Source: an uncultured Acidimicrobiales bacterium (GTDB lineage Bacteria; Actinomycetota; Acidimicrobiia; Acidimicrobiales; VFJN01). Taken from it: 64,000 nt of DNA. The notes beneath the pieces were generated by a model, which worked only from the letters and a program-made list of their open reading frames with translations, had not been told where the DNA came from and did no database searches. The translations under genes and the position numbers were made by a program. Location: assembly GCA_963739835.1 (NCBI GenBank), contig CAVUBW010000026.1, forward strand, positions 127,538 to 191,537. The letters run 5' to 3'. Below, in pieces: positions 6,060 to 51,620 of the stretch (positions are counted from its first letter, which is position 1; each line of letters begins with the position of its first letter).

Positions 6060-7568
6060 TCAGGCGGTCGTGCCGTCGAGCGCCGGCTGCACGATGTCGG
6101 CGGCGGGCGCCACGAGCGGCTCCTCGAGCACGTGCTTCGCGTCAGGGTGACCGGCACCGGCACCGGGTAGTCGCCGGTGAGGCAGGCGGTGCAGAACGCC
6201 GCCGCTCGGCGCGCCGGTCGCGCTCCACCAGCCGGTCGAGCTCGAGGTAGGCGAGCGAGTCGACGTCGAGGTAGTCGCGGATCTCGCCGACCGAGCATGT
6301 CGGCGGCGAGCAGCTCGGAGCGGTCGCCGGTGTCCATGCCGTAGAAGCACGGCCAGCGGTACGGCGGCGACGAGACCCGGAAGTGCACCTCGCGCGCGCC
6401 GGCCTCGCGCAGCATCGCGCACGATCTGCTGCGGGGTGGTGCCCCGGACGATCGAGTCGTCGACGACGACGAGGCGCTTGCCGCGCGATGTTCTCGCGCA
6501 GCGGGTTGAGCTTCAGGCGCACGCCGCGGCCGCGCATGCGCCTGGCTCGGCTGGATGAACGTGCGGCCGACGTAGCGGTTCTTCACCAGCCCGTCGCCGT
6601 ACGGGATGCCGCTGCGGCGGGCGAAGCCCTGCGCCGCCGGGACGCCCGACTCGGGCACCGGCATCACCATGTCGGCGTCGACCGGCGCCTGCTCGGCGAG
6701 CTCCTCGCCCATGCGCTGACCCGGGCCGCGTGCACGCTCTGGCCGTAGAGCCGGGTGTCGGGCCGGGCGAAGTAGACGAACTCGAACAGGCAGAGCTTCG
6801 GGTCGCGGCTCGGCGAACGGGTGCGAGCGACCGGAGCCCGTCGGCGTCGATGACGACCATCTCGCCGGGCTCGACCTCGCGGACGAAGTGCGCGCCGACG
6901 ATGTCGAGCGCGGCGGTCTCGCGTCGCGAGCACCCAGCCGCCGTCGTCGGGGCGCGCCCGAGCACGAGCGGCCAGAAGCCGTGGGGGTCGCGCACGCCGA
7001 ACGACCGGGCCTCGTCCATGAGCACGAGCGAGAACGCCCCGGCGAGCCGGGGCAGCACGGCGGCGACGGCCCGAGCTCGACGGCTCGTCGCCGTCGCGGG
7101 TTCGGCCTCCAGCTCGGCGGCGATCAGCTCGGCGACGAGGTCGCTGTCGCTGGTGACGGTTGCCGGCGAGCATCCCGAGCCCCGTCGGCGAGCGTCGTCG
7201 GTGTTCGTGAGGTTGCCGTTGTGGCCGAGCGCGAACCGGCGCTCGCCGACCGAGCGGTAGACCGGCTGCGCGTTGCGCCAGGTGCGTCGACCCGGTGGTC
7301 GAGTAGCGGCTGTGGCCGATCGCGAGGTGGCCCTCGAGCGGCGCGAGGCGGCGCTCGTCGAACACCTGGTGACGAGGCCCATGTCCTTGACGACGGTGAG
7401 CTTCTCGCCGTCGCTGACCGCGATGCCGGCCGACTCCTGCCCGCGGTGCTGGAGCGCGTACAGGCCGAGGTAGGTCAGTTGGGGAACGGTGGGGCCGGGG
7501 GCGTACACGCCGAAGACCCCGCACGCCTCCCGCAGGTCGTCGTCGTCGGGACCGGCGGGCCCGATCAT
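6060..7568 (-). pseudogene. purF: amidophosphoribosyltransferase, frame-disrupted in this sequence
   Basis: MIGPAGPDDDDLREACGVFGVYAPG..LYALQHRGQESAGIAVSDGEKLTVVKDMGLVT / QVFDERRLAPLEGHLAIGHSRYSTTGS / NAQPVYRSVGERRFALGHNGNLTN / SDSDLVAELIAAELE / AFSLVLMDE..GVRDPHGFWPLVLG / LDIVGAHFVREVEPGEMVVID / PVPESGVPAAQGFARRSGIPYGDGLVKNRYVGRTFIQPSQ / AGAREVHFRVSSPPYRWPCFYGMDT lie in different frames. At least 8 frame changes. Confidence 0.85.
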
Positions 7569-7690
7569 GCCGGCGGCCCCGGTTGTTGCGCGTCGATCAC
7601 GGACCACAGTCTGCCGGACGGGCACCCCCGACCGGCGAACCGGCAGCCTGTGGCACCGGACGCGCTGCGCGTCCAATACGCTGCCGAGCG

Positions 7691-8218
7691 ATGGACCTGC
7701 TCCAGCGCACCCTCGCGCGCTCGCCGACGATCGAGAAGTTGGTCAAGTACTCGGCCGCATCGGCGGTCGGTGTCGGCGTCGCGGTGCCGGTCCTGGCGAT
7801 CGCGTACGGCCCGCTGGGCTGGCTCGCGGCCAACCTGCTGTCGGTCACCTGCGGGTCGGTGCCCAACTACCTCATCAACCGCCGCTGGACCTGGCACCAG
7901 ACGGGCAAGAACCGCCTGTGGGGCGAGGTCGTCCCGTTCTGGGTGATGAGCGTGCTGGGCATGATCCTGAGCCTGTTCGCGGTGAGCTACGCGGACCAGC
8001 GCTGGGGCACGAAGCTGTCGGTGGTGGTCGCCCAGCTGGCGGGATTCGGCGTCCTGTGGCTGGCCAAGTTCCTGATCCTCGACAAGGTCATGTGGAAGAT
8101 CGTCCACGAGATGCAGCCGGACGTGGCCATCGACGAGGCCGAGGCGGGCCTGATCGGCGCCCTGGACATGGACGGCAAGGACGGCGAGCCCGCAACCCCA
8201 GACCAGGTGAGGCGGTAG
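7691..8218 (+). CDS. GtrA family membrane protein
   Basis: ATG 7691 within track ORF 7583..8218: [30 protein letters not shown]...[32 protein letters not shown]...[12 protein letters not shown]. Typical GtrA-like pattern with four TM segments. Confidence 0.8.
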
Positions 8219-8232
8219 ACGGCCTCGTTAGG

Positions 8233-8288
8233 CGCTTTTCGTCCCTGGAACTGGTCGCCATGGCGACCACTTCCAGGGACAAAACGCG
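8233..8288. repeat. ~55-nt palindromic repeat unit (copy E1), 9 nt downstream of the purL stop and 15 nt after the gtrA-like stop
   Basis: CGCTTTTCGTCCCTGGAACTGGTCGCC-ATGG-CGACCACTTCCAGGGACAAAACGCG. Arms are near-perfectly complementary. Related copies lie at 25305-25360 and 51561-51616. Confidence 0.8.
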
Positions 8289-8296
8289 ACGGGGCG

Positions 8297-25304: not shown

Positions 25305-25360
25305 CGCGTTTTGTCCCTGGAACTGGTCGCCAGAACGACCACTTCGGGGGACAAAACGCG
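25305..25360. repeat. ~55-nt palindromic repeat unit (copy E2), 9 nt downstream of the BY-kinase stop
   Basis: CGCGTTTTGTCCCTGGAACTGGTCG-CCAGAA-CGACCACTTCGGGGGACAAAACGCG. Same family as 8233-8288 and 51561-51616. Confidence 0.8.
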
Positions 25361-25368
25361 GGTCTGCC

Positions 25369-27126
25369 TCAGTTCCTCGCCGGGGGGGCCACGTCCCAGT
25401 CGGCATCGGGGTCGCCCTCGTCGTCGGCCCAGCGGGGCCGGCGACCGCGGCGGCCGTTGCCGCTCTCCTGCTCGACCGGGCCCTTGTGGTGGCGGGCGCG
25501 GGCGCTGGAGGTGGTCTCGTAGCGGTAGGGCTCGCCGCCGAACGAGTCGTCCGGGGACAGGCTGTTGAGCACCGTGCCGGCCAGCGGGGCGTCGACCTGG
25601 CGGAGCAGCTCGACCGCCCGGGCCAGGCTGCGCTTGGACGTGCGGTTGACCGACGTCACCAGCAGCGTCGTGTCGGCCATGCGGGCGAGGACCAGGGAGT
25701 CGGTGACCGCCAGGACCGGCGGGCAGTCGATGACCACCACGTCGTAGGTCTGGCCCAGCACGTCGATGAGCCGCCTCGCCCGCTCGCCGCTCAGCAGCTC
25801 GGACGGGTTGGGCGGCGGGTAGCCGGCCGGCAGGACCGAGAGGTTGGGCACCGAGGCCACCGTCTGGATCGCCTGGGGCAGCGTGACGTCGCCGATGAGC
25901 ACCGCCGTGAGGCCCGGCGTGAGCGGGACGTCGAGCACCTCCTCCATGCGCGGGCGCCGGAGGTCGCCGCCGACCAGCACGACCCGGTCGCCGGCCTGGG
26001 CGAACGCGATCGCCAGGTTGACCGCCACCGCGGTCTTGCCCTCGCCCGGTGACGGGCTCGTGACCTGCACGACCCGCACCTGGCGCTCGATGCTGAGGAA
26101 CTTGACCGACGTGCGCAGCAGGCGGAACGCCTCTGCCGCCGGGGCGTTGGGGTAGTCGACCGTCACCAGGTCGGAATCGGAGTCGTACTTGGGGATCAGG
26201 CCCAGCGTGGTGACGCCGGTGACCTGGTCGACCATCTCCTTCGACTTGACCGAGTCGTCGAAGTAGTCGCGCACGAACGCGAGCGCCGCCCCGAGGAACA
26301 GGCCGAACACCAGGCCGATCGCCAGGTTGAGCGGCAGGTTGGGGCTGACCGGCGTGTCGGGCGCCCCGGCGAGGCTGAGCACCTCGGCGCCGCCGCCGGC
26401 CGACAGTTCGACGCCCAGATCGACGTTGGAGAGCGTCCGCTGGATCTGGGCCGCCTGCGAGGTCAGCGGGTCGGTCTGCTCCTTGAGCGCCGCGGCGGTC
26501 TGCGTCCGCTGCGCGATCAGGGCGGTCGGGTTGCCCTGGTCGGTGGCGATCTGGGCGTCGATTGCGGCGAGCGGCTGGTTGATCGCGTCGATCTGGTCTT
26601 GGGTCTCCTGGAGCAGCGCCTCGAGCCGGCCCTTGGTCGTGTTCAGCCGCTCCTGGTCGATCGACTCGCGCAGAGCGACGTAGGTGTTGGCGTAGACGTT
26701 GACCAGCGTGGCCGCGGCCACCGGGTCGGTCGACAGCAGCGACAGCTCGACCACACTGGACGTGTTGCTGTTGTCCTCGACGCCGACCGGGCTGGCCGAG
26801 ACCCTGAAGATCTCGCCCTTGGACATCGAGCCCGTGTAGGCCTTGGCTACCGCGAACCGCATGCGGGACGACGAGATGAACGCGAGCTGGCTGCTCGCCT
26901 GGCGGTTGAGGTCGCCGCCGCCGTTGACGCCGAACACCATCGCCACCGGGTCGTTCACGCCGGTCGTGAGCACCTGGGCACGCACGCGGTAGCGGGGTTG
27001 GGGGACGACCGAGACCGCGATGGCAACGCCCACGCACACCAGCGTCGTGATGATCACGAGCCAGCGGCGCCGGGCGATGATCCCCAGATAGGACCGGAGA
27101 TCCGGCTCCTCCAGCGACGACTCCAT
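25369..27126 (-). CDS. polysaccharide biosynthesis tyrosine autokinase (Wzz-like domain plus BY-kinase)
   Basis: Track ORF, 585 aa. N-terminal TM plus chain-length-determinant region, second TM, then [18 protein letters not shown] (Walker A), [20 protein letters not shown] and a C-terminal YRYE. Confidence 0.85.
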
Positions 27127-27205
27127 GAGGCCCCGATCCTACAGGGAGCGGGTCTGCCCGGTCAGACTGAGCGCCCGGCCCGGCCTTGCGGCCGCATCGT
27201 CATGG

Positions 27206-27705
27206 CTGGCCGGTTGTCGTGGCTTCGGTTGGGTGTTGGCACTTGCGCGGGTGCTGGTCTGGCCCAGGGGCTGGTAAGGAGGCCGCCCGGGGGCGGCCTC
27301 CAATGTGAGTGTGGGGGCGGTCGGGTGGGCGTCAAGGACAAGCTCGCTGCGCTCGGCCGCCTGCGGCGGCTCCTTGACCCCCACCCGACCGCCTTTTTCC
27401 ACGCACGGTGGCCCTGGCTCGCCCCTGTTCTGGGGTCTCTTCGTTCTGGGTCGCGAAAGTGGTTGATAACCAACCACTTTCGAGGCCAGTTGCCCGCGCA
27501 ACGACTTCCCCCCGGTTAAACCAACGGTGTAAGGGTCACCGTGAGTGTCAAACGGGCGGTCGGGCGGGGGTCAAGGAGCCCCGCAGGGGCCCGTGCGCAG
27601 CACGGCTTGTCCTTGACGCCCGCCCGACCGCCCCAACAATCCCCAAAGAGGCCGCCCCCGGCGGCCTCCTAACCGGCCTCGTTATCGTTTGGTCGTTTTC
27701 GTTGG
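27206..27705 (+). repeat. ~0.5-kb structured repeat, copy 1 (core 27271-27676 with ~120-bp imperfect terminal inverted repeats)
   Basis: Aligns by eye with 36258-36761, with about 10 differences over the ~405-bp core. Hairpins: GGAGGCCGCCCGGGGGCGGCCTCC (27278-27301); GGCGGTCGGGTGGGCGTCAAGGA...TCCTTGACCCCCACCCGACCGCC followed by TTTTT (27317-27398); central palindrome GAAAGTGGTTG-ATAAC-CAACCACTTTC (27455-27481). Mirror-image hairpins lie at 27554-27676. Confidence 0.85.
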
Positions 27706-27871
27706 GGTTGGAGCGGCGACCAAGGGCCAGCCGGGCGCCCTCCACTAGCCTGGCCCGATCGCACTGGTCGCCCAGCCCTTCGGCGGCGGACAGCCGTCCC
27801 GGCCGTTTGCGCTGCCCGCCGGTCCGCCGGCCGAGCGGCGGCCACCGGTCGCGCCCCGCCGCCGGTCCCGC

Positions 27872-29164
27872 ATGGGCGGGGCGCTCTTCCTGGCGTGCCT
27901 CGGCCTCGCCCTGCTCGGCTTCAACAAGTTCCGGGTGGCGGGCACGCCGATCTCCGACATCGTGTTCCTGCTCGGTGCGGTGGTGACCGGGCTCAAGATG
28001 CTGTCGGGCAACACCGGCGACCTCTCGCCCCCGGCCATGCGCAAGACGTCGCCGCCGATCCTCCTGGGCACGATCCTGCTCGGCGCGGCCGGGACCATCG
28101 CCTGCCTCCAGTCGTTCACCCCCGCCGACTCGGCCATCCAGGTCGTGCGGATCGTGTGGATCACGCTCGTCTGGTTCTGGTTCCTGCGGGCCGTGACCCC
28201 CGACCGGATCGCGCTCAACCGGCTGTTCAAGGCGTTCGAGATCACGATCACCGTGAGCTGCATGGGAGCCATCGCCGGCTACTTCGGCCTCATCCACCTC
28301 ACCCGCGACAACCCCGACAACCGCCAGGCCGCGTGGTTCGGCCACCCCAACGAGCTGGGCGGCCTGCTGATCGTGGCCATGCCGCTCGTCGTGATGGGCC
28401 TGCCATGGCGGGACCAGCAGACCACCAAGCTGCCCTGGCGCCGCGTCGCCATGTTCGGGCTGGTCGGCTTCGCCATCGGCACGACCGGATCGCTCACCGC
28501 CTTCATCTCCACCGCCGTCGCCTTGTCGCTGTGCGTCGGGCTCAGCGTGCTGACCAAGGGCCCGCGGGCGCCGGGCGCGAAGCCGCCCAGCCCGATCCCC
28601 ATCCTGCTCGGGATGGCCGTGGCGGTGGCAGGCATCGCCTGGCTGTTCAGCAGCAACCTGCCCGTGATCGACCGGCTCACCCAGCTCGAGGGCGGCGACA
28701 GCGCGGTCAACGAGAGCGTGACCTCGCGGGGCAACGTCAACAACTTCGTCATCGGCAACTTCGACCACTCGCTCGTGACCGGCGTGGGCCTCGACGCCAA
28801 CACCAATTTCGTCAGCGAGCAGGACGGGCAGGTCGGCGCGTCCCGCGTCCACAACATGTTCCTCAAGCTGCTCTACGAGACCGGCGTCCCCGGGCTCGTG
28901 GGCCTGCTCGTCGTCGTGGTCGCCAGCGTCCGCCAGGCCTGGCTGCTCGTGCTCAACACGCGCGGCACGCCGCTGCACGCGGCGTCGATCGGGCTGATGT
29001 CGTCGATCCTGTCGATCAACGTGTTCGCGATGTTCCAGCCCGTCTTCGCCCAGCGGTTCTACTGGTTACCACTGGCCCTCGTGAGCGTGCTCTGGGCGCT
29101 GCGCCGCCAGGAGCTGCGGGACCGGTACCTCCACGGGCTCGCCGCCGCGGACGTCGCGGTCTGA
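27872..29164 (+). CDS. O-antigen ligase/polymerase family membrane protein (Wzy_C-like)
   Basis: Track ORF, 430 aa with about 10-12 TM segments. Contains AAWFGHPNELGGLLIVAMPL and SRVHNMFLKLLYETGVPGLVGLL, typical of O-antigen ligase/polymerase-like proteins. Confidence 0.75.
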   Translation: MGGALFLACLGLALLGFNKFRVAGTPISDIVFLLGAVVTGLKMLSGNTGDLSPPAMRKTSPPILLGTILLGAAGTIACLQSFTPADSAIQVVRIVWITLVWFWFLRAVTPDRIALNRLFKAFEITITVSCMGAIAGYFGLIHLTRDNPDNRQAAWFGHPNELGGLLIVAMPLVVMGLPWRDQQTTKLPWRRVAMFGLVGFAIGTTGSLTAFISTAVALSLCVGLSVLTKGPRAPGAKPPSPIPILLGMAVAVAGIAWLFSSNLPVIDRLTQLEGGDSAVNESVTSRGNVNNFVIGNFDHSLVTGVGLDANTNFVSEQDGQVGASRVHNMFLKLLYETGVPGLVGLLVVVVASVRQAWLLVLNTRGTPLHAASIGLMSSILSINVFAMFQPVFAQRFYWLPLALVSVLWALRRQELRDRYLHGLAAADVAV

Positions 29165-30376
29165 GGCCGCCTCGGCCCGCAGCGCCCCGTAGGTCACCAG
29201 CCACACGATCGCCGCCAGGCCCTGGCCCACGGCGAACCCGACGACGAAGCCCATCAGCCCGCCGATCAGGGCCCCGCCGAGCGGGCACACGACCATGAAG
29301 CCGATGCTGCGCAGCCGGGCGCCGATGCCCTTGGTGCCGTCCAGCGAGCGCACGCCGACCAGCCCGCCGGCGATGAAGCCGGCGCCGACCATGGCGACGC
29401 CCATCGGCACGAGGATGCCGTCGGCGGTGGCCCAGGTCGGGCCGAACAGCGCCCGGCCGAACGAGTCGGGCAGGATGACGCCGACCGCGGTCCACGCCAG
29501 CGACGACGCGCCGACCAGCAGCGACGCGCCGACGACCAGGCGGAGCAGCCGCTCGGGCTGCTCGCGCAGCCGCATGCCCTCGGGCAGCGCGGCGAGCAGG
29601 ACGCCGGCCTGCAGCGTCATGATCGGGCCGAAGAACAGCCACCCCGCCCGGACCGCGCCGTACGCGGTCAGCCCGAGGATCCAGCCGCACCCGACCAGCG
29701 CCAGGTAGGTCCCGGCCTGGGCGGCTGCGTACTCGCCGAGGAACCGGACGCCGAGCGCCCGGTGGTCGCGGAAGTACACGAGCGGGCGGGGCCGGTGGTC
29801 GAAGCAGCGCCAGCAGATCGCCGACGCCACCGCGGCGCCCAGTATGCCGCCGGCGCCCCACGCCAGCACGTACCAGCCGACCTGGGCCGACGCGGGCGCC
29901 ACGGCGATCGCCGCGCAGCTCGCGGCCAGCCACACCAGGTCGATCGTGAGCGCCATCGCCGGCCGGTCGATCATGAGCATGTAGCGCCAGGCGTCCTGCA
30001 GGAGGACCAGCGGCAGCACGACGGCGAGCGCGACCAGCGCCGAGCCGGCCATGCCCCCGAGGGCCGTGCCGGCGAGCGCGACCGCGACCGCCACCGCCAC
30101 CCCGAACGTGAACATCGCGCCGAGGTAGCTGGGCACGAGCGCCCGGCGGTCCGCCTCGGCTCGGGCCGAGTGCTGCGAGATCATCGGCTCGGCCACCAGC
30201 CCGCGGGCGCAGCCGACGGTGAACTGGAACACCAGCACCGCCACCCCGAACGCGGCGAACGGCTCGGGCGTGGCAAACGAGCGCGCCACCAGGATGGCGA
30301 CCACCACGTTCGACAGGCTGGAGGCCGCCTGGTCGGCGACGACCAGCACCCGGCGGGCATTGGTCGCGGTGGCCAC
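29066..30376 (-). CDS. polysaccharide flippase (Wzx/MOP superfamily)
   Basis: Track ORF, 436 aa: MATATNARRVLVVADQAASSLSNVVVAILVARS.. with about 12 TM segments. Its start lies 4 nt after the epimerase stop. The 3' end overlaps the convergent ligase gene by 99 nt. Confidence 0.75.
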   Translation of the reverse strand: MATATNARRVLVVADQAASSLSNVVVAILVARSFATPEPFAAFGVAVLVFQFTVGCARGLVAEPMISQHSARAEADRRALVPSYLGAMFTFGVAVAVAVALAGTALGGMAGSALVALAVVLPLVLLQDAWRYMLMIDRPAMALTIDLVWLAASCAAIAVAPASAQVGWYVLAWGAGGILGAAVASAICWRCFDHRPRPLVYFRDHRALGVRFLGEYAAAQAGTYLALVGCGWILGLTAYGAVRAGWLFFGPIMTLQAGVLLAALPEGMRLREQPERLLRLVVGASLLVGASSLAWTAVGVILPDSFGRALFGPTWATADGILVPMGVAMVGAGFIAGGLVGVRSLDGTKGIGARLRSIGFMVVCPLGGALIGGLMGFVVGFAVGQGLAAIVWLVTYGALRAEAASDRDVRGGEPVEVPVPQLLAAQRPEHAHEGQW

Positions 30377-30380
30377 CCGC

Positions 30381-31377
30381 CTAGCGGTCTCGGGAGAGCG
30401 ACGCGGCGACCTGGTCGTGGACCCAGGCGTAGGTGGCGGCGAGGCCGTCCTCCAGCGTGATCGACGGCGCCCAGCCCAGCCGCTCGCGGATCAGCGTGTT
30501 GTCGCTGTTGCGGCCGCGCACGCCCTTCGGGCGCGTCGAGCTTGTAGCGCGCGCTTCAGCTTCACGCCGGCGATCTCCTCGACGATGTCGACGAGCTGGT
30601 TGATCGTGACCAGCTCGTCGCTGCCGACGTTGAGCGGCTCGACGATGTCGCTGTGCCATGAGCCGCAGCGTGCCCTCGAGGCAGTCGTCGATGTACATGA
30701 AGCTGCGGGTCTGCTCGCCGTCGCCCCAGATCTCGATCTCGTGGTCGCCGGTGAGCTTGGCGTCGATGACCTTGCGGCAGATCGCCGCCGGCGCCTTCTC
30801 GCGGCCGCCGTCCCAGGTGCCGTGCGGGCCGTAGACGTTGTGGTAGCGCGCCACGCGCGTCGCGAGGCCGAAGTCCTCGCGGAAGTGGCGGCACATCCGC
30901 TCGCTGAACAGCTTCTCCCAGCCGTAGCCGTCCTCGGGCATCGCCGGATAGGCATCGCTCCTCGCTCAGCGGCGGTGACGTCGGTGCGGCGTCTGCTTGT
31001 CGGCGGCGTAGACGCAGGCCGACGACGAGTAGAAGAAGCGCTCGACGCCGGCGTCGCGGGCCGCCATCAGCATGTGGGTGTTGATCAGCACCGACAGCAT
31101 GCACAGCGGCCTTGTTGTGTCTCGATGAAGCCCATGCCGCCCATGTCGGCCGCGAGGTTGAACACCGTCGTCGACGCCCGTCGACCGCCCGGCGGCAGGC
31201 GTCGAGCAGCTGCAGGTCCGCGCTGCATGTTCTCGACGTCGTCGAAGACCTGGTACCACTCGTCCAGCGGCTTGACAGTCGACGGCCGCGGATCCGGCCG
31301 ACCCCGTCTTCCCGTAGCCGGCGCACCAGGTGGCCCCCGATGAAGCCCCCGGCGCCGGTCACCAGCACATGGTCCAT
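30381..31377 (-). pseudogene. NAD-dependent sugar-nucleotide epimerase (GDP-mannose 3,5-epimerase-like), frame-disrupted
   Basis: MDHVLVTGAGGFIGGHLVRRLREDG (ATG 31377) / FYSSSACVYAADKQT / YGWEKLFSERMCRHFREDFGLATRVARYHNVYGPHGTWDGGREKAPAAICRKVIDAKLTGDHEIEIWGDGEQTRSFMYIDDCLEGTLRLM / EPLNVGSDELVTINQLVDIVEEIAGVKLKR / RGRNSDNTLIRERLGWAPSITLEDGLAATYAWV lie in different frames. At least 4 frame changes. Confidence 0.8.
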
Positions 31378-31384
31378 TGTGAGG

Positions 31385-32737
31385 TCAGGTCTCCTGGGTC
31401 CGGGCCACCGCCTGGCGGACGATGGCCCGGTCGATGACGTCCTGGAAGCGGTCGGCGATGACCGCGGTGTCGAACGTCGTCTCAGCGTAGGCGCGAGCAC
31501 TGCGCCCAGCCGAAGAACGCAACGCTGCGTCGGTGCGGAGCTGCTTCGCCGCGACGAGGAAGGCCTCCTCGTCTGACGGTGGGACCACGAGGCCGGCGCC
31601 GGCCCGCTCGATCGTGCGGGCGGCGAGGTTCTCGGGCGGGATGGCGGCCAGAATGGGCCGGGCCGCACAGAGGTAGGACAGCACCTTGGACGGGACGGAG
31701 AAGGTGCCGGCGGTCGGCTCCAGCAGCGCGACCAGCACGTCGGCGGCGCCGAGAATGTCCGGGTAGTCGGACATCGCCTGGAACGGCAGCAGGTGCAGGT
31801 TGGGCAGCGGGTCTTTGCGCAGCAACTCCCGGAGGCGGGCCTCGCCCATGCCCTCGCTGACCACCACGACGTCGGCGTCGCCGGAGCGCTGCTCGGCGAG
31901 CCGGTACAGCAGCTCGGGCCGGTGCTTGAGCCCGAGGGTGCCCGTGTAGAGGTAGACGAACCGGTCGCCGAGGCCCCGGCGCTGGCGCCACTGGTTGTCG
32001 CGGGGGCGCAGCGGCAGGTCGCCGAGCGGCGCCCAGTTCTCGATGACCGTGCAGTCGTCGGCGTCGATGCCCCAGGAGGCGAGCATCGGCTCGAAGTCGT
32101 CGGTGATCGACACGACGCCGGATGCCTGGCGCAGCAGCCGCCGCTCCAGGGCCTCGAAGCTCGTGCCGACCCGGCGCCCGAGGCGGGCGGCCCCGAAGCG
32201 CTCGCAGCGCTTCTCGGCCTCGGCGGTCATCGCCACGCTGTGGAGGTCCTGGAGCCAGAAGACCCACGGGACGCCCACCTTGCGGCACCAGGCCGCCGCC
32301 ACCGACTTGGCGACGAGCGGCACGTTGCAGGCGAGCACGACGTCGGGCCGGAACCCGGCGGCGACGCGGGTGAAGCGTCGGCCGTAGGCGGCCTCCTGGC
32401 TGATGCGGCGCACGGGCGCGTAGCGGGCGAACGACTCGCCCGCCGGGATGGCGACGACCGAGAGGTTCCCGTCGTCGTCGCCGCGCTCGAAGCGACCCTT
32501 GCCGCTGGTGTACGACCCGCAGTAGACGTGCTGGACCTGGTTGCCCCGCTGGGCCAGCGCCCGGCTGAGGTCGATCTGGAACGGATGGCCGGCGAAGTCG
32601 TGGACGAGGATGCGCAACGTGCGCGAGCGGGCTTGCTCGCCGGGAGCGACCGCAGGACGCCGCGCCGGCGGCGTGCGTGCGTCACTCACCGGGTCCGCAT
32701 CCGATTCGCGGAGCCACATCGACGTGTCCTCCCCCAC
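31385..32737 (-). CDS. GT4 glycosyltransferase (WcaI-like)
   Basis: Track ORF: ..RILVHDFAGHPFQIDLSRALAQRGNQVQHVYCGSY...VVSEGMG...PSKVLSYLCAARPILA. The homology-consistent start may be TTG at 32617 (MRILVHDF..) rather than 32737. Confidence 0.8.
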   Translation of the reverse strand: MGEDTSMWLRESDADPVSDARTPPARRPAVAPGEQARSRTLRILVHDFAGHPFQIDLSRALAQRGNQVQHVYCGSYTSGKGRFERGDDDGNLSVVAIPAGESFARYAPVRRISQEAAYGRRFTRVAAGFRPDVVLACNVPLVAKSVAAAWCRKVGVPWVFWLQDLHSVAMTAEAEKRCERFGAARLGRRVGTSFEALERRLLRQASGVVSITDDFEPMLASWGIDADDCTVIENWAPLGDLPLRPRDNQWRQRRGLGDRFVYLYTGTLGLKHRPELLYRLAEQRSGDADVVVVSEGMGEARLRELLRKDPLPNLHLLPFQAMSDYPDILGAADVLVALLEPTAGTFSVPSKVLSYLCAARPILAAIPPENLAARTIERAGAGLVVPPSDEEAFLVAAKQLRTDAALRSSAGRSARAYAETTFDTAVIADRFQDVIDRAIVRQAVARTQET

Positions 32738-32889
32738 GTTGCGCCGAACCCCTGGGTTCCCCTGCTGAGGCCGGATTCCGACCCTGTCCTACGGACGGCC
32801 CCAGCGATCCGGGCGGCCAGACGACCGCTTGTGACCGAAGAGTAAGATACGAATCTCGTGCCGTCCACTCCTGTGTCCTGGGACACACG

Positions 32890-34083
32890 ATGAGGGTTCT
32901 CGTCGTTCACAACCGCTACTCGTCGCGTTCACCCTCCGGTGAGAATGCGGCCGTCGACGACGAGATCCGCTGGCTCGGCATTGCGGGCGTCGACGTGGTC
33001 ACCCACCAGGTCAGCAACGACGAGATGGTCGACGTCGGGCCGCTCGACCGGGTGCGCGACGGGCTCGGCGCGGTGTGGTCGGTCGCGGCCCGCCGGCGCT
33101 TCGAGCGAATGCTCGACGAGTGCCGGCCGGACCTCGTCCACGTGCACAACCTGTTCCCGCTGCTGAGCGCGAGCGTGCCGCTGGCCGCCCGGCGCCGGGG
33201 GACGCCGCTCGTGTGGACCGTGCACAACCGCCGGGTCCGCTGCGTCGCCGGGGGGTACTTCCGGGACGGCCAGCCGTGCCACCAGTGCCGGCCCGGCTGG
33301 CGGGTGCCCGGCGTCGCCCACCGGTGCTACGCCGACTCGCTCGGCGCCAGCGCGCTGGTCACGGCGGCGACCTCGATCTTCCGCCGGGCGGCCCGCCGCG
33401 GGGTCGTGCCGGTCGCCATCAGCCGCACGATCGCCGACTGGCTGGGGTCGGCCGGCGGGTTCGACCGCGCCGCCGTGCGGGTCAAGTACAACGGGGTCGA
33501 CGCCCCGACCGACCCGCCGCCCCCGCCCGGCGAACAGCGGCGGTTCTGCTTCGTGGGGCGGCTGTCGGCGTACAAGGGGATCGTCCCGATGCTGGCGGCG
33601 TGGCGGGCGGCGGACGTGGACGCCGAGCTGCACATCCTCGGCGACGGCGACCTGGCCGCCGAGGTGCGGGCCGCAGCCGCCGCCGACCCCCGGATCGTCT
33701 GGCCGGGCCAGGTCCCGCCGGCCCAGGTCGCCGACACCCTGCGGGCGAGCCGGGCGATGCTGGTGCCGTCGCTGTGGGAGGAGGGGTTCGGCCGGGTGGC
33801 GGCCGAGGCCCAGGCGTTCGGCCGGCCGGTCATCACGTCCGGGCACGGCGGGCTGGCCGAGATCGTGGACGACACGACGGGCTGGATCACCGGCACGTCG
33901 GTCGCTGCGCTGGCCGCCGCGATCGGGGAGGCGGCGACGTCGTCGGAGGCGGTCGACCGCCGGGGGGCGGCGGCGGCCCGGCGCCACGCCGAGCGGTTCA
34001 GCCCCGAGGTCACGACCGCCGAGCTGATCCGCATCTACGAGGACGCCCGCCGGCCGCAGGCGGCGTCGGCCGCGGGGGCATGA
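32890..34083 (+). CDS. GT4 glycosyltransferase (paralog 1 of a tandem pair)
   Basis: ATG 32890 in track ORF 32677..34083: MRVLVVHNRYSSRSPSGENAAV..VHVHNLFPLLS..C-x11-CHQC-x12-C..LVPSLWEEGFGRVAAEAQAFGRPVI. Confidence 0.85.
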   Translation: MRVLVVHNRYSSRSPSGENAAVDDEIRWLGIAGVDVVTHQVSNDEMVDVGPLDRVRDGLGAVWSVAARRRFERMLDECRPDLVHVHNLFPLLSASVPLAARRRGTPLVWTVHNRRVRCVAGGYFRDGQPCHQCRPGWRVPGVAHRCYADSLGASALVTAATSIFRRAARRGVVPVAISRTIADWLGSAGGFDRAAVRVKYNGVDAPTDPPPPPGEQRRFCFVGRLSAYKGIVPMLAAWRAADVDAELHILGDGDLAAEVRAAAAADPRIVWPGQVPPAQVADTLRASRAMLVPSLWEEGFGRVAAEAQAFGRPVITSGHGGLAEIVDDTTGWITGTSVAALAAAIGEAATSSEAVDRRGAAAARRHAERFSPEVTTAELIRIYEDARRPQAASAAGA

Positions 34084-34087
34084 CGCC

Positions 34088-35329
34088 GTGCGGGTCGTCG
34101 TCGTCCACAACCGGTACTCGTCGCTGACCCCGTCGGGCGAGAACGTCTCGGTCGCCCAGGAGGTCGAGGGCCTCCGGGCCGCCGGGGTGGACGTGACGGT
34201 CCACGAGACCTCCAACGACGAGGTGCTGGGCGGCGGCGTGGCCGTGCGCGTGCGGTCGGCGGCCGGGTCGGTGTGGTCGCCGGGCGCGGCGTCCCGCTTC
34301 GGCGCGGTGCTCGACCGGGCCCGGCCGGACCTCGTCCACGTCCACAATCTTTTCCCGCTGTTCACGTCGAGCGTGCCGGGCCGGGCGGTCCGGGCGGGCC
34401 TGCCGGTCGTGTGGACGGCCCGGAACCTGCGCGTGCTGTGCGTCGAGGGCACCCACTTCCGCGACGGCGCCGACTGCGCCGACTGCCGGGCGGGCTGGCG
34501 GGTGCCGGGCATCCGCCACGGCTGCTACCGCGGGTCGGTCGCCGGCAGCGCGCTGATCACGGGGGCGACGTCGATCTTCCGGCGGCTGGCCCGCACCCGC
34601 CTGCAGACGATCGCGATCAGCGAGACGCTGCGCGACTGGCTGGTGGCGGAGGCGGGGTTCGACCCGGATCGGGTGCGGGTGAAGTACAACCCGATCCCGG
34701 CGCCCGGGTCGGCGGCCGCCGTGGGCGACCCCTCGGCGGGCCGGGAGTTCCTGTTCGTCGGCAAGTTCGCCGTCTACAAGGGCATCGACCTGCTGCTCGA
34801 CGCGTGGGGCCGGGTGTCGGCGCCGGAGGCCCGGCTGTGCTTCGTGGGCGACGGCCCGCAGGCCGACACGGTCCGGGCGGCGGCGGCCCGTGACCCCCGG
34901 ATCGAGTGGACGGGCCAGCTCCCGGTGGCGGAGGTGGCCGCCCGCATGGCCGCGGCCAGGGCCGTCGTCGTGCCGTCGGTGTGGGACGAGCCGTTCGGCC
35001 GTGTGGCGGCGGAGGCGTTCGCGACCGGCCGCCCGGTGATCACGACCGGTCGGGGCGGGCTGCGCGAGGTGGTCGGCGACGAGGCGGGCTGGGTGACGGG
35101 GACCGACCCGGCGGCACTGGCGGCGGCCATCGACGAGGCGGCGGCGTCGGACGAGGCGGTGGCGGCGAGGGGCGCCGCGGGCCGGACGCGCCACGCCCGG
35201 CTGTTCTCGGTCGAGGCGACGACGGCGGCGCTCATGGAGCTGTACGAGTCCGCGATCGCGGACCCCGAGCACGGGGGGCGACCGGCGGGTAACATCGCTG
35301 AGGAGCGGGGAAAGCGTCCGCAGCGCTGA
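34088..35329 (+). CDS. GT4 glycosyltransferase (paralog 2 of a tandem pair)
   Basis: Track ORF: MRVVVVHNRYSSLTPSGENVSV..VHVHNLFPLFT..C-x11-CADC-x12-C..VVPSVWDEPFGRVAAEAFATGRPVI. Collinear with the upstream paralog. Confidence 0.85.
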   Translation: MRVVVVHNRYSSLTPSGENVSVAQEVEGLRAAGVDVTVHETSNDEVLGGGVAVRVRSAAGSVWSPGAASRFGAVLDRARPDLVHVHNLFPLFTSSVPGRAVRAGLPVVWTARNLRVLCVEGTHFRDGADCADCRAGWRVPGIRHGCYRGSVAGSALITGATSIFRRLARTRLQTIAISETLRDWLVAEAGFDPDRVRVKYNPIPAPGSAAAVGDPSAGREFLFVGKFAVYKGIDLLLDAWGRVSAPEARLCFVGDGPQADTVRAAAARDPRIEWTGQLPVAEVAARMAAARAVVVPSVWDEPFGRVAAEAFATGRPVITTGRGGLREVVGDEAGWVTGTDPAALAAAIDEAAASDEAVAARGAAGRTRHARLFSVEATTAALMELYESAIADPEHGGRPAGNIAEERGKRPQR

Positions 35330-35350
35330 GGACGGACCAGGGGGAGCATC

Positions 35351-36256
35351 GTGGATACGACCACCACAGCACGCTCTCCCGGGCGGGTTGCGGTCACCGG
35401 GCGCGGCGAATCCGCCGCACAGAGCGATGCCACGTCACCGTCGGTCAACCGGCCCCGGTGGCTGACCTCGCTGGTGGCGGTGCTGGTGGTGGTCGACGGC
35501 CTGGCGATGGCGGCCGCGACGTTGACGGCCAAGCTCACGGTCACGGGCGCGGAGGGCGCCGAGGTCCACATCCGCTCGATCCGCCTGCCCGACACGGCGC
35601 TGGGCCTGGCGACGATCCCCACGTGGCTGGTGATCCTGGCCCTGGCCGACGCCTACGACGTCGGCCCGTTCGGCACGATGTCGGGACTCTGGACGAGGGT
35701 CGTGCGGGCCGGCGCCCAGCTGCTGGCGGTCGTGGCGGTGGCCTACTACGTGCTCCACCTGGCGCTGGTCGGCAGGGGCGTGCTGGCGGCGGTGGTGCCG
35801 CTGGCGGTGGTCTTCACCCTGGGCGCTCGGGCGGCCGTGGCCACCGTCCTGCGCCGCGCCAGACGCCGCGGCCGAGCCCGCCGCACGGCCCTGGTCGCGG
35901 GATCGCGCCGGGGCATCGACGCGGTGATCGACCAGCTGGCGGATCGCCCGGCGAGCGGCATCACCCCGATCGACGCCCTGGTCCTGGGCCCGGACGCCGA
36001 CAACGGCAACGCCGGCAAGCTCCCGGTGGCAGCCGGCGACGTGGGCGCAGCGGTGAGCGCGGCGCTCGCGACGGCAGGCGCCGAGGCGCTGATCGTCACG
36101 GGCGGGCTCGCTCGAGGTCAGCTCCGCGACATCGCCTGGCGCTTGGAGGGCACGGGCGTCGAGCTGCTGGTGATGCCGGCGCCTAGCGAGCTGGAGGAGC
36201 TGAACGCGGACATCCGGCCCGTTGCCGGGCTGCCGTTGTTTTACGTCGAGCGTTGA
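35351..36256 (+). pseudogene. exopolysaccharide polyprenyl-phosphate glycosylphosphotransferase, N-terminal 301 aa only (catalytic C-terminal domain missing)
   Basis: Track ORF has four TM helices, then a Rossmann-like region (RRTALVAGSRRGIDAVIDQL...EALIVTGGL...VELLVMPAP...IRPVAGLPLFYVER*). In this family the Bac_transf domain (about 190 aa) normally follows at this point. Here the TGA at 36254-36256 is followed 2 nt later by repeat copy 2. Confidence 0.7.
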
Positions 36257-36257
36257 T

Positions 36258-36761
36258 CTGGCCGCTGTTCTGGTCTTGGGTTGGGTGTGGGCACTTGCGT
36301 CGCGCGCGGGTCGGCCCTGGGGCTGGTAAGGAGGCCGCCGGGGGCGGCCTCCAATGTGATGGTGGGGGCGGTCGGGTGGGCGTCAAGGACAAGCTCGCTG
36401 CGCTCGGCCGCCTGCGGCGGCTCCTTGACCCCCACCCGACCGCCTTTTTCCACGCACGGTGGCCGTGGGTCGCCTCTGTTCTGGGGTCTTTTCGTTCTGG
36501 GTCGCGAAAGTGGTTGATAACCAACCACTTCCGAGGCCAGTTTCCCGCGCAACGACTTCCCTCCGGTTAAACCAACGGTGTAAGGGTCACCGTGAGTGTC
36601 AAACGGGCGGTCGGGCGGGGGTCAAGGAGCCCCGCAGGGGCCCGTGCGCAGCACGGCTTGTCCTTGACGCCCGCCCGACCGCCCCAACAATCCCCAAAGA
36701 GGCCGCCCCCGGCGGCCTCCTAACCGGCCTCATTTCGTTTTCGTTTCGGTCGTTTTCGTTG
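36258..36761 (+). repeat. ~0.5-kb structured repeat, copy 2 (core 36323-36726), same orientation as copy 1
   Basis: Same hairpin series as copy 1; central palindrome at 36506-36532. The left edge abuts the truncated transferase stop. The right edge lies about 5 nt from the true hspR stop (36766). The tail carries TCGTTT-type short tandem units with a different copy number from copy 1. Confidence 0.85.
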
Positions 36762-36765
36762 TCGT

Positions 36766-37148
36766 TCAGCGGCCGCGGGTGTCGAACACAGCGACCGCCT
36801 GACGCAACGGCACGAGGTCGCGGCGGTACTGGCGGTGGGTGTCGGCCACCGCGGCGGAGGCCTGGCGGCGGACCTCGGCCAGCTCGGCGTGAGGCTGGCG
36901 ACCTCGGCCTCCAGCTCCAGGACCCGCGGCACGCCGTCGAGGTTGAGGCCCTCGTTGGTGAGCTCCTGGATGCGGCGGAGCCGGTCGATGTCGGCGTCGC
37001 TGTAGCGGCGGCTGCCGCCGCTGGTGCGGGCCGGGTCGACCAGGCCCTTGCGCTCGTAGATGCGCAGGGTCTGCGGGTGCACGCCGGCCAGCTCGGCGGC
37101 GACCGAGATGACGTAGACGGCGCGCGTGGACTCACGGGCGGCGGGCAT
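36766..37148 (-). pseudogene. hspR: heat-shock repressor HspR (MerR family) with one frame slip near 36,890
   Basis: [78 protein letters not shown] is in the track frame. After the slip the sequence continues [42 protein letters not shown] (own translation; stop at 36766-36768). Confidence 0.85.
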
Positions 37149-46146: not shown

Positions 46147-48568
46147 CTAGGGCGCCACCGGGCGGCAGGCCTGGCCCCGGAGCCCCGGGCACGGCATCGG
46201 GTCGTAGGGCGCCGGCGGCACGTCGACGCCGTCCAGGGTGGACAGGACCAGGGCCGACGGGCGGGCCGCGGTGCGCGCCACCTGGATCGTCGGGGTCGCC
46301 CCGCCGTAGTCGGGGTTCTCGAACTCCCAGATGGCGTGGTTGCGGCCGGGCGTCGCCACCGACAGGCGCAGGCGCGACCCGGCCCGCATCGGAGCGGCGA
46401 ACGAGGGGATCTCGACCCGGGCCTCGACGAACCGCCCGGGTCGCAACGGCTGGCGGTCGCGCTCGGTGAAGCTGTGCACGATCTCCAGGCCGTCCGATGT
46501 GCGCTCCTCGGCCCGGTCGGTCAGGTCGAGCCAGCCGTTCTGGAGCAGGCTCTCGGTGCCGTCGGGCCGGACCTCCGAGACCGTGACCTGCACGTTCGCC
46601 TCGGTCGCGTCGGCCGCCACGTACAGGTCGGCATAGCCGGGGCCGGCGAATACGGTGTCGTGCTCGAACGGCGGCGTCATGTAGGCCAGCTCGTCGCCGG
46701 CTGGGAACCGGGTCCAGTCCGCGGTGTCCCAGACCCGGGCGAGCAGCGGGTAGTCGCCGGTGCCGCCGAACAGCGTCGAGCCGCCCGCATCGGGGTCGAA
46801 GCGGAACTGGTCGGCGCCGCCGCCGTCGCCCCGACCCTGGGGGGCGTCCGGCGTCAGCGCACCGCCCGCGCCCAGGTACCAGGTCGTCGCCTGGGCCTCG
46901 GGCGCCGGCCAGCGGTCGAAGCTCTCCTCGAACGTGCCGCCGGGCTCGCCGATCTCGTCCCGGCCGAGCCCGCTCTCGTACTGCACCCGGACCGGCTTCT
47001 CGGCCTCGTACGCGGCCCGGGCCCCGGCGAGGTCGTCGCCGAAGCCGGCGAAGCGGTCGGGCTCCAGCTCGATGTCGTCGACGTGGAACTGGTCGGCGAG
47101 GATCGGGGGCAGCGCCTGGCGCACCAGCGGGTTGATCACGGGCACCCGGTCGGCGACGTAGAGCTCGAGGAACTCGTACCAGCGCACGACGTTGGCCGGG
47201 CCGTAACCGTCGGGGTGGCGGCCGTTCCACAGGTTGACCCGCAGCAGCGGGGTCGAGTCGAAATGGTCGAGCATGGCCGTGAACTGGGGCCCGGTCTGCT
47301 CGTCCTGGAACGCCCCGGACAGGAACACCGGCGCCTCGATGCCCCGGACCAGCTCGCGCAGGTCGCGGGCGGCCGCGGCCGGCGTGTAGCTCGACAGGCT
47401 GTGGACCAGGTTCTCGAAGTCGGGGTTCTGGGCCCGCAGCGGCATGTTGGCGGCGCACGTCTGGTCGCCGCCGGCCACCCGGGCCGCCACCCAGTCGGTG
47501 CCGCCGGGGCGGCTCTCGGCGTCGCGCTCGGCGGATCCACTGCTGGGTGAAGCCCGAGTTGAAGATGCCGCCCGGCCAGGCCTCCAGCCAGGGATCGGCG
47601 ATGACCGACTGGGGCGTGATCGCCGCCAGGTGGGGCGGGTTGGTGGCGGCGGTGTAGAGCTGGGTGATCCCCGAGTACGACAGGCCGACCATGCCGACCT
47701 TGCCGCCCTTGACCCAGCTCTGGCGGGCGACGGTCTCGATGACGTCGTAGCCGTCGGCCATCTGGGCCGGGTTGAACACGTCGAACACGCCGCCCGAGCA
47801 GCCCGAACCCCGGAGGTTGACCGACACGGTGGCGAAGCCGAGGGCCCGGGCCAGGCGCACGCCCGGCTCCTCGGCCGCGGGGTTGGACGGCGAGTAGCCC
47901 GAGTACTCGACCACCGTCGGCCACGGGCCGGGCCCGTAGAGGCTCTCGTCGGGGAACCGGACCATGGCCGACAGCCGGACGCCGTCGCGCATCTCGATGT
48001 AGCCGTAGCCGTCCTCGACCGACGTGCCGGGCTTGGGCGTGCCGAAGATGTCGAGGTGGGCGCCGGAGAGCTGCTGGCGCTCGTAGAGCGCGGGATCGGG
48101 GATGTCGTCCCGGGCCGGGACGGTCAGCACCGCGGTCGCCAGCCGGGGGTCGGCGGACTCGTCGACGAGGGCGTAACGGCCGGGCGCCACGGTGGTGCCC
48201 CGGGCCACGTCGAGCTGGGAGTAGTCGAGGGCGGAGCCGGACGGCAGCGTCTCGTACTCGGGGGGCAGGTAGGCGAACTGCGCCTGGCCCTGGTCGTCGG
48301 CGAGGAGGGTGAGCAGCTTGCGGCGGTGGGCGCCGTAGAGGGTCAGCGGCTCGCCGGGCGTGGCACCGGTGACGGTGAGCTGCTCGACCCCGGCCCGGAC
48401 GTCCCAGGGCGCGGGCTCGGTGCCCCGGAGCACGCGGGCGAACCCCTCGTCCCCGCCGGCGGGGCCGGGACCGCCGGCGTTGCGGCACGCGACGGACGCC
48501 ACCGCCACGACCAGGCCGAGCGCGACCAGCAGCGTTCGCCGGCGCCGCGGGGCCGCCGCGTTCGTCAT
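46147..48568 (-). pseudogene. CocE/NonD family hydrolase (X-Pro dipeptidyl-peptidase S15-like), secreted; one frame slip near 47,537
   Basis: The N-terminal part (signal/lipobox LVVAVASVAC; ..VVEYSGYSPSNP..NLRGSGCSGGVFD..GMVGLSYSGITQ..) is in the frame of ORF 45653..48568. The C-terminal 447 aa are in ORF 46147..47490. Confidence 0.8.
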
Positions 48569-48607
48569 CTACCCCTCCCGAGTTCGTCGAATCTGGTCCG
48601 AACCGTC

Positions 48608-48645
48608 GGGCCGGCCGGTCGACCCCCTTCGCGGCCGGCCGGCCC
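48608..48645 (-). terminator. GC-rich hairpin downstream of the thiolase stop (candidate terminator)
   Basis: GGGCCGGCCGG-N16-CCGGCCGGCCC, an 11-bp perfect stem. No U tract follows. Confidence 0.3.
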
Positions 48646-48667
48646 GGGGCCGGTCAACGTGTGCCGG

Positions 48668-51560: not shown

Positions 51561-51616
51561 GACGTTTTCTACGCGGAAGCGGTCGCGATGGCGACCACTC
51601 CCGCGTAGAAAACGCG
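51561..51616. repeat. ~55-nt palindromic repeat unit (copy E3), 4 nt downstream of the hup stop
   Basis: GACGTTTTCTACGCGGAAGCGGTCGC-GATG-GCGACCACTCCCGCGTAGAAAACGCG. The outer and inner stems are conserved relative to E1/E2. The middle stem differs on both arms (ACGCGG/CCGCGT versus CCCTGG/CCAGGG). Confidence 0.75.
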
Positions 51617-51620
51617 AGGG

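Follow-up and report, generated by a model that had tools for sequence, protein, structure and literature searches.

A lineage-restricted family of non-coding, probably mobile hairpin repeats in uncultured Acidimicrobiales

Gene content of the locus and architecture of the repeat

The sequence analysed in this study is a stretch of 64,000 nucleotides (the window) from contig CAVUBW010000026.1 of an uncultured Acidimicrobiales bacterium, in which two copies of a long, hairpin-rich intergenic repeat are located in the same orientation, ~9 kb apart. Comparison with copies in a related metagenome-assembled genome (MAG; MFD04850.bin.2.134) suggests that they are members of a family of non-coding mobile repeats that is non-autonomous and confined to one lineage. 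Copy 1 is situated between divergent gene starts, 47 bp upstream of the intact start codon of a gene encoding a Wzz/tyrosine-kinase protein, and copy 2 takes up all of the spacer that separates two convergent genes, stop codon to stop codon; these encode a CoA_binding_3 protein (TGA, 36254-36256) and HspR (TCA, 36766-36768).

Window positions 25369-36256 encompass an exopolysaccharide-type gene block, encoding the Wzz/tyrosine-kinase, a Wzy-like O-antigen ligase, GT4 glycosyltransferases and the stand-alone CoA_binding_3 protein. This block adjoins hspR and dnaJ, with grpE and dnaK coming next in the syntenic region of the MAG. The two direct copies bracket its Wzy-to-CoA_binding_3 part, and recombination between them could delete that part. 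No tRNA genes were detected in the window by a tRNA scan. Two candidate effects of copy 2 on its neighbours were rejected: truncation of a sugar-transferase gene, as the 301-aa CoA_binding_3 protein falls within the range of ~290-350 aa that includes all its homologues, and extension of a 142-aa MerR/HspR open reading frame into the element, as a frameshift is present near position 36890 and the gene actually terminates at the conserved TCA (36766-36768). Both the frameshifted hspR gene (36720-37148) and a peptidase S15/PepX gene that is split over two frames (46147-48568) are intact in relatives, which suggests long-read assembly errors rather than pseudogenes; with several frameshifted genes in the window, single-base indels between the two copies may thus also represent sequencing errors.

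The repeat consists of a ~415-bp unit (27269-27684 in copy 1), in which two inverted arms of ~135 nt each surround a ~150-nt centre, and this unit lies within an inserted block of 539 bp (27174-27712; Table 1). The inverted repeat spans positions 27269 to ~27681, each arm reaching inward to the motif CACGGTG. A preliminary description, made from the sequence alone, had placed the element at 27271-27676; an element is indeed present there, but the unit is longer, and the copies also have in common a left (X) and a right (Y) module beyond the arms. Most structural details of that description were confirmed, i.e. the outer hairpin (hairpin A), the 23-bp stem (hairpin B) followed by TTTTT, and the perfect 11-bp central palindrome with its ATAAC spacer. 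The right arm, described as a mirror of the left with about 80% agreement by eye, was measured to be 86-90% complementary over inverted-repeat pairs of 57, 31 and 24 nt, and the CGGTG/CACCG hairpin was recovered with a loop of 7 rather than 9 nt. The stem of hairpin B in the left arm contains a conserved C.C mismatch.

The degree of structure is far beyond chance. A pattern derived from the B stem produced eight matches in the window as compared with none in 100 shuffles, and a 431-nt stretch covering the element exhibited a fold energy of -331 kcal/mol (z = -22.4), the opposite strand reaching z = -20; this near-equal folding of both strands is explained by the element being an inverted repeat.

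Core identity between the two window copies is 97%, with near-identity from 27269 to 27683 in a pairwise alignment, and weaker yet clear similarity extends leftward into the X module and rightward into the Y module. Such near-identity is indicative of recent copying or gene conversion. The first 31 nt of the copy 1 block (27174-27204; CCCGGCCCGGCCTTGCGGCCGCATCGTCATGG), which contain a small CGGCC/GGCCG hairpin, have no counterpart in copy 2, in the MAG copies or in the corresponding empty site of the MAG.

Table 1. Coordinates of the two copies of the repeat, their parts and related palindromes in the window
Feature	Position	Strand	Remarks
Copy 1 (W1), whole inserted block	27174..27712	.	Orthologous MAG site has 8 bp (GCACCGCC) instead
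GAGCG, left half of possible 5-bp target-site duplication, copy 1	27169..27173	.	
GAGCG, right half of possible 5-bp target-site duplication, copy 1	27711..27715	.	
Left X module (CTGGCCG..GGCACTTGCG..GGCCCAGGGGCTGG)	~27205..27268	+	Non-palindromic; common to copy 2, L004, L016 and L020
Left arm	27269..27410	+	Order: GGCTGGTAAGG, hairpin A, hairpin B, T-run, CCACGCACGGTG
Hairpin A, left arm	27278-27301		24 nt, GC; GGAGGCCGCCC/GGGCGGCCTCC at 27278-27288/27291-27301, 11 bp, 100% complementary
Hairpin B, left arm	27316-27393		78 nt; 23-bp stem 27316-27338/27371-27393, 96% complementary; 32-nt apex
T-run TTTTT directly after hairpin B	27394-27398		
Variable centre	27411..27538	.	Extended palindrome 27449-27487 and start of CGGTG-N7-CACCG hairpin
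Central palindrome core GAAAGTGGTTG-ATAAC-CAACCACTTTC	27455-27481		Perfect, 11 bp
Hairpin CGGTG-N7-CACCG	27525-27541		3' half falls in right arm
Right arm, inverted	27539..27681	-	Hairpin B', hairpin A', terminal CCTAACCGGCCTCG
Hairpin B', right arm	27554-27577/27610-27633		24-bp stem; GTTT at inner side, minus strand
Hairpin A', right arm (terminal hairpin)	27648-27668		
Right Y module, array of T-rich 6-8-nt units (TCGTTATCGTTTGGTCGTTTTCGTTG)	27679..~27709	+	Length differs among copies
Copy 2 (W2)	36258..36765	.	508 bp
Copy 2, X module	36258-36320		
Copy 2, hairpin A	36330-36352		
Copy 2, hairpin B	36367-36444		Followed by T-run
Copy 2, palindrome	36506-36532		
Copy 2, hairpin B'	36605-36684		
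Copy 2, hairpin A'	36699-36719		
Copy 2, Y module	36730-36765		
Solo C-pal member	8233-8290		
Solo C-pal member	25306-25362		
Solo C-pal member	51563-51618		

Arm conservation, modular build and coding status

Ten copies and 22 arms were aligned for comparative analysis (loci and contigs outside the window are designated here by L numbers). The conserved unit is the ~135-nt arm, which comprises, from outside to inside, GGTWAGG, hairpin A, a ~14-nt linker, hairpin B, the T-run and CAC(G/T)CACGGTG; mean column identity in the alignment of the 22 arms is 83%. Hairpin B is nearly invariant in sequence, the C.C mismatch being found at the same stem position in each of the 22 arms, and its apex has the potential to fold into two mini-hairpins (TGC/TTC loops), where variation is compensatory. 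Every one of the 713 cells in the A and B stems represents a standard pair; 28 of the 34 pairs are invariant and three display compensatory double changes, most clearly a switch from CG to GC in hairpin A (seven arms). Conservation is thus mainly one of sequence, a pattern that agrees better with recognition by a protein or with recent spread than with selection acting only on RNA shape.

The copies were furthermore shown to be modular. At the left end, the X module is present in five copies (both window copies, L004, L016 and L020) and is swapped for an inverted, T-rich Y-type module in four MAG copies (L002, L005, L011 and L017), and these two end types are found in reassorted combinations with three kinds of centre. 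In five of the nine full copies with an intact left end, the outermost modules (X and Y) are not inverted versions of one another. The notion that X and Y are pre-existing target repeats was not supported, as neither was detected away from arms in the 178 kb of sequence examined.

Open frames are not conserved among the ten copies, and the element is, as already proposed in the preliminary description, judged on this basis to be non-coding. That description also considered a large structured non-coding RNA gene, in which case the copies would be duplicates of such a gene. The extremely stable structure predicted for both strands (z = -22 and -20) is compatible with this idea, as are some compensatory changes, located in hairpin A, the B stem, the mini-hairpins of the apex and the central palindrome. 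However, both strands fold equally well because of the inverted repeat, copies occur in either orientation relative to flanking genes, and arms are found solo (L009) or around an unrelated centre (L003). The centre, expected to be the seat of any unique RNA function, is the most variable part; no promoter-like site faces it, and the terminator-like signals in both arms would block incoming transcription. Rfam yielded no match above gathering scores, and together with the predominantly sequence-level conservation of the stems these data render an RNA gene quite improbable.

Distribution of the repeat family

To assess the distribution of the repeat, genomes were scanned with an exact B-stem pattern, using one genome per species, so that copy numbers are lower bounds. 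Only one organism produced multiple matches, namely the uncultured Acidimicrobiales MAG MFD04850.bin.2.134, with 11 loci on five contigs; matches in all other genomes scanned were single, chance occurrences. The MAG contains at least nine full copies, in both orientations and always intergenic, which exhibit 72-92% identity to each other and 78-87% to the window copies. Besides these, one arm occurs on its own (L009), another is truncated (L006), and in L003 two arms enclose a different centre of 312 bp. An additional copy was identified beside hspR on a contig from the Joint Genome Institute (JGI) collection (L037), which stops inside an arm.

Scanning of JGI metagenome contigs with the B-stem pattern returned single chance matches only, pattern scans for the terminal sequences did not reveal a copy in JGI metagenomes or viral contigs, and blastn searches against plasmids and phages produced no match. 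An arm covariance model applied to the 178 kb examined retrieved the known arms and no additional one in the window. The Rfam search proposed in the preliminary description was performed on the window without a match at gathering thresholds; at permissive E-values, only microRNA hairpin models were returned (best score of 31 bits, against a threshold of 70). No literature on repeats of this kind in Acidimicrobiia or Actinobacteria was found, and the initial impression that the element matches no known family holds at the sequence level. The family appears to be restricted to a small group of uncultured Acidimicrobiales.

Insertion polymorphism among close relatives

A region of the MAG (L036), retrieved through protein look-ups, is collinear with window positions 26840-47152 at ~90% nucleotide identity. 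At the site of copy 1, the MAG carries 8 bp (GCACCGCC, L036 20046-20053) in place of the 539 bp of the window, and the flanks of this site (27027-27173 and 27713-27978) align to the MAG with 97% and 87% conservation, respectively. The site of copy 2 was shown to be variable among relatives whose HspR proteins are at least 96% identical: in the window and L037 it is filled by the element, in a 15.7-kb JGI contig (known from gene coordinates only) it is a spacer of 8 bp, and in the MAG (L036 10388-11517) and L035 (1116-2246) it holds a Methyltransf_21 gene. The CoA_binding_3-hspR spacer (window 36257-36765) is an indel hot spot. A 13-nt match of the element end (CTRACCGGCCTCG) to the hspR-methyltransferase spacer of the MAG was dismissed as chance, since the same string also occurs in unrelated coding sequence.

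The Wzy gene of the window is also carried by a short-read Logan contig. This contig begins 187 nt upstream of Wzy, at ~27685, i.e. within a base or two of the point where the two window copies cease to be identical (27683/27684), a break that is typical of a genuine repeat.

As the sites of both window copies differ among relatives, the element is interpreted as a mobile non-coding repeat, and the comparison shows that particular sites have gained or lost the element among close relatives, and points to recent copying in the window genome. The data are best explained, with a probability of roughly 0.6, by a family of mobile repeats that are non-coding, non-autonomous and confined to one lineage, and that behave like transposable elements of the miniature inverted-repeat type (MITEs) and are built like bacterial interspersed mosaic elements (BIMEs). 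This would constitute a new family of non-autonomous interspersed repeat, which was not placed in any named family. An enzyme encoded elsewhere, recognising the conserved arm, would most probably move the element.

Two alternatives in which the copies are not mobile were considered. Firstly, the element may be a fixed cis-regulatory module (a bidirectional terminator/insulator), inherited vertically and lost in some lineages. This would be consistent with the inward hairpin and T-run present in 17 of the 22 arms, with the position of copy 2 exactly between convergent genes, and with the hspR-adjacent element common to the window and L037, lineages that are ~88% identical in their DNA. It is nevertheless improbable: about a dozen copies are situated at unrelated loci beside unrelated genes (encoding TetR, subtilases, TauE, HMGL and exopolysaccharide proteins, the window copies being flanked by Wzz-kinase, Wzy, CoA_binding_3 and HspR genes), and copy 1, between divergent gene starts, has no obvious terminator role. 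The site of copy 1 in the MAG is moreover intact (8 bp versus 539 bp, with well-conserved flanks), and the identity of 97% between the window copies contrasts with a difference of ~10% between the genomes.

Secondly, the direct copies could represent the left and right attachment sites (attL/attR) of an 8.6-kb exopolysaccharide island, or the pair could be an assembly artefact. The former corresponds with the bracketing of the Wzy-to-CoA_binding_3 gene block, and the latter with the frameshifted genes in the window, which suggest an error-prone long-read assembly. Nonetheless, the gene block occupies the same place in the MAG and the JGI contig with one or both repeats missing, and no integrase was detected among the flanking genes scanned with Pfam. 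In addition, the element is present in independent assemblies (the MAG and L037), and the Logan contig starts where the copies cease to be identical, as expected for a real repeat. This alternative is effectively refuted by synteny.

Target sites and search for a transposase

The preliminary description listed a MITE as one option and proposed to look for target-site duplications in additional copies and for a transposase with the same ends. A mobile, multi-copy, non-coding repeat was indeed found, with several MITE characteristics (a core of ~415 bp, inserted blocks of 508-539 bp, inverted arms, dispersed copies and insertion polymorphism), but neither a consistent target-site duplication nor a cognate transposase was found in the sequences searched, and the ends are mosaic; the element is therefore termed MITE-like here.

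Copy 1 is flanked by GAGCG (5 bp), the reading of which is ambiguous given the 31 extra nucleotides left of X, and L017 is flanked by GGGTTTGA (8 bp). Copy 2 and the other copies display no clear duplication, L013 not being assessable as its left arm is truncated. The case for GGGTTTGA as a general 8-bp target duplication is weakened by the fact that part of the right flank of L017 (TGACCCCGCCG) is common to L013. The element copies of L013 and L017 are located just upstream of different subtilase (Peptidase_S8) genes and share the short motif TGACCCCGCCG...AAAGCG beyond the element end (L013 768-837 and L017 5529-5600); nucleotide similarity stops before the genes.

A partner insertion sequence (IS) with the same ends was not found in the window, MAG loci, plasmids, phages, viral contigs or JGI metagenomes. 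The best tblastn match to a REP-associated tyrosine transposase (RAYT) query (E = 0.24; window 48480-48665) was discarded, as it falls inside the frameshifted peptidase S15 gene.

Several observations weigh against a family of mobile repeats with the properties proposed here. The empty sites could in principle be deletions. Target-site duplication does not appear consistent across copies, no transposase adjoins any copy among the flanking genes examined, and tblastn with IS200 and RAYT queries detected nothing credible in the 178 kb. The outermost ends, as judged from the alignments, are not a simple inverted repeat, given that X and Y differ, and copy 1 carries 31 extra nucleotides. With regard to the transcriptional signals described in the next section, the B hairpins were not called by a simple terminator scan, because their loops exceed the limit of that scan, and the -10-like hexamer begins with C or A where the consensus has T. 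Finally, copies are not enriched at positions expected of terminators, two of the 12 (including copy 1) being located between divergent genes.

Potential effects on neighbouring gene expression

Hairpin B has a calculated free energy of -44 to -66 kcal/mol, and in 17 of the 22 arms at least four T residues are present within the 8 nt that follow its stem on the inner side, so that transcription entering the element from either side meets a hairpin and a U-run. An inserted arm should therefore, by virtue of this very stable hairpin and T-run, act as an intrinsic terminator for incoming transcription. Each arm resembles such a terminator in that a GC-rich hairpin facing incoming transcription is followed at once by 3-5 T; it differs in its 78-nt stem-loop with a branched apex, far above the usual size, and in its short T-runs. 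Conversely, an outward-facing motif, TTGACG-16 nt-CAnnnT, with TTGACG located in the outer half of the B stem, was identified in 18 of the 22 arms and may act as a promoter; no promoter-like site facing into the centre was found. The element may thereby insulate and rewire neighbouring genes, and the bidirectional terminator/insulator envisaged in the preliminary description is plausible as a side-effect of the element.

Most copies begin 0-12 nt from a stop codon, and in ten of the 12 copies one or more genes point into the element. Convergent, tandem and divergent contexts occur in a ratio of ~4-5 : 5-6 : 2 among these 12 copies, which is not clearly different from random expectation, and the flush junctions with stop codons are attributed to the compactness of intergenic spacers. 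Through the insertion of copy 1, the former upstream DNA of the Wzz-kinase gene is now located beyond an inward, terminator-like arm; the promoter of this gene would thus be displaced unless it lies within the remaining 47 bp, which fits a promoter being supplied by the element.

A bolder interpretation, considered doubtful, is that the arms are apex-branched recognition hairpins for a single-strand-specific (HUH/TIRYT-like) or new Acidimicrobiales transposase and that the element is a portable insulator cassette. If so, each insertion would bring two inward intrinsic terminators and two outward promoters, thereby rewiring the expression of its neighbours, as exemplified by the exopolysaccharide block bracketed by the window copies, where 47 bp of the original upstream sequence is left at the Wzz-kinase gene. 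More generally, if the terminator and promoter signals work, insertions would alter the transcription of adjacent genes, here the exopolysaccharide block and the hspR-dnaJ heat-shock genes.

Comparison with known repeat systems

Interspersed hairpin repeats have been well documented in Proteobacteria and some other phyla, but few descriptions exist for Actinomycetota and, to our knowledge, none for uncultured Acidimicrobiales. The Correia/NEMIS elements of Neisseria are MITEs with 26-bp inverted repeats, for which promoter and terminator activity has been reported. Like these, the present element is non-coding, multi-copy and intergenic, has inverted-repeat ends, would form long hairpins when transcribed and varies in presence among relatives; the activities of Correia elements are also those suggested here by the arm motifs. 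It differs in being three to five times longer, in having arms of ~135 nt with two hairpins each rather than 26-bp inverted repeats, in the lack of a TA-type or other consistent target duplication, in its exchangeable outer modules and in having no known parent IS.

A second point of reference is formed by repetitive extragenic palindromes (REPs), BIMEs and REPINs and their RAYT transposases (PMC3733652, PMC2817692, PMC3116915). REPs are defined as units of 20-40 bp with a GTAG/CGTC tag, and Actinobacteria are not mentioned in the list of phyla with REP repeats given in a 2013 survey (PMC3733652). Similarities to these systems include GC-rich palindromic units after stop codons, arranged in inverted fashion and in mosaics with other motifs, the presence of several unit families per genome, variable presence among relatives, and a dedicated IS that targets one of the families. 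Differences were also apparent, as no conserved GTAG/CGTC tag is present in the 22 arms, the units are far above 20-40 bp in length, at least 11 loci (by exact-pattern scan) rather than hundreds occur in the MAG, and no RAYT was found in the 178 kb.

The TIR families associated with TIRYT transposases ('TIRtrons') are moderately abundant, long inverted repeats unrelated to GTAG REPs, some of which have the motif GGGGWSAS in common (PMC3733652). Both these families and the present one are moderately abundant and consist of long inverted repeats, some self-complementary, occurring as dimers or clusters; unlike in the TIRtrons, no tyrosine transposase gene flanked by arms of the element was seen here.

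A more specific version of the preferred explanation is that the element belongs to a REP/BIME-type or TIR-repeat system, in which single-stranded hairpin DNA is moved by an HUH tyrosine transposase (RAYT/TIRYT) encoded once, elsewhere in the genome. Its mosaic of inverted, GC-rich palindromic units in intergenic positions just past stop codons would agree with this, as would the absence of a clear target duplication and the invariant stem sequence with a fixed mismatch, which is expected of a protein-recognised hairpin. A second palindrome family is, moreover, the specific target of an IS30-family element (see below), and RAYT-like genes have been described whose long flanking inverted repeats constitute moderately abundant families (PMC3733652). 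On the other hand, neither hairpin carries a GTAG or CGTC tag (the arms start with GGTWAGG), the units of 24 and 78 nt in ~135-nt arms contrast with the 20-40 bp of REPs (PMC3733652), and the tblastn searches with IS200 and RAYT queries gave nothing credible in the 178 kb. Such a system is therefore regarded as possible, though unlikely on present data.

The broader explanation, a family of non-autonomous mobile repeats, places the element closest to bacterial MITEs in apparent behaviour and to REP/BIME mosaics in build and context, with the long inverted-repeat families of RAYT-like genes as a further likely parallel. It does not overturn current ideas, the element being an ordinary kind of bacterial mobile repeat that represents a new family. 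Its practical relevance is that the family breaks short-read assemblies at its boundaries and marks recent genome change among close relatives.

A second palindrome family targeted by an IS30-family element

The central palindrome of the window copies was found to be a diverged member of a separate, dispersed family of ~56-nt palindromes (designated here as C-pal; consensus CGCGTTTTGTCCCnGGAAnnGGTCGCCAnnGCGACCnnTTCCnGGGACAAAACGCG), which is matched closely by the centres of L011, L013 and L017. In addition to three solo members in the window (Table 1), C-pal sequences are present at many sites in MAG loci L002-L011, as near-perfect palindromes in short intergenic gaps, and stem changes between copies are compensatory.

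The MAG also contains two 97%-identical copies of a 1.25-kb IS30-family element (L006 ~447-1692 and L011 ~6560-7771), the transposase of which was identified by NCBIfam model NF033563 (E = 2.8e-86) and the Pfam domains HTH_38 and rve. Each copy is inserted inside a different C-pal member, with a 3-5-bp direct repeat (GAC or GCGAC), indicating that the palindrome is the target of the IS and not its end. The possibility that C-pal represents fused IS30 ends was rejected, since the flanking palindromes differ and the IS has its own ends (GGCGGATTC.../...GAAACCGCC); the former (GGCGGATTC...) also differ from the ends of the hairpin element.

The co-occurrence of two palindrome families, one of which is targeted by an IS30-family element, offers a compact system for studying the origin of repeat ecosystems. 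IS1397 and ISKpn1 insert into the BIMEs of E. coli, and the IS30-family element described here likewise inserts into a palindrome repeat.

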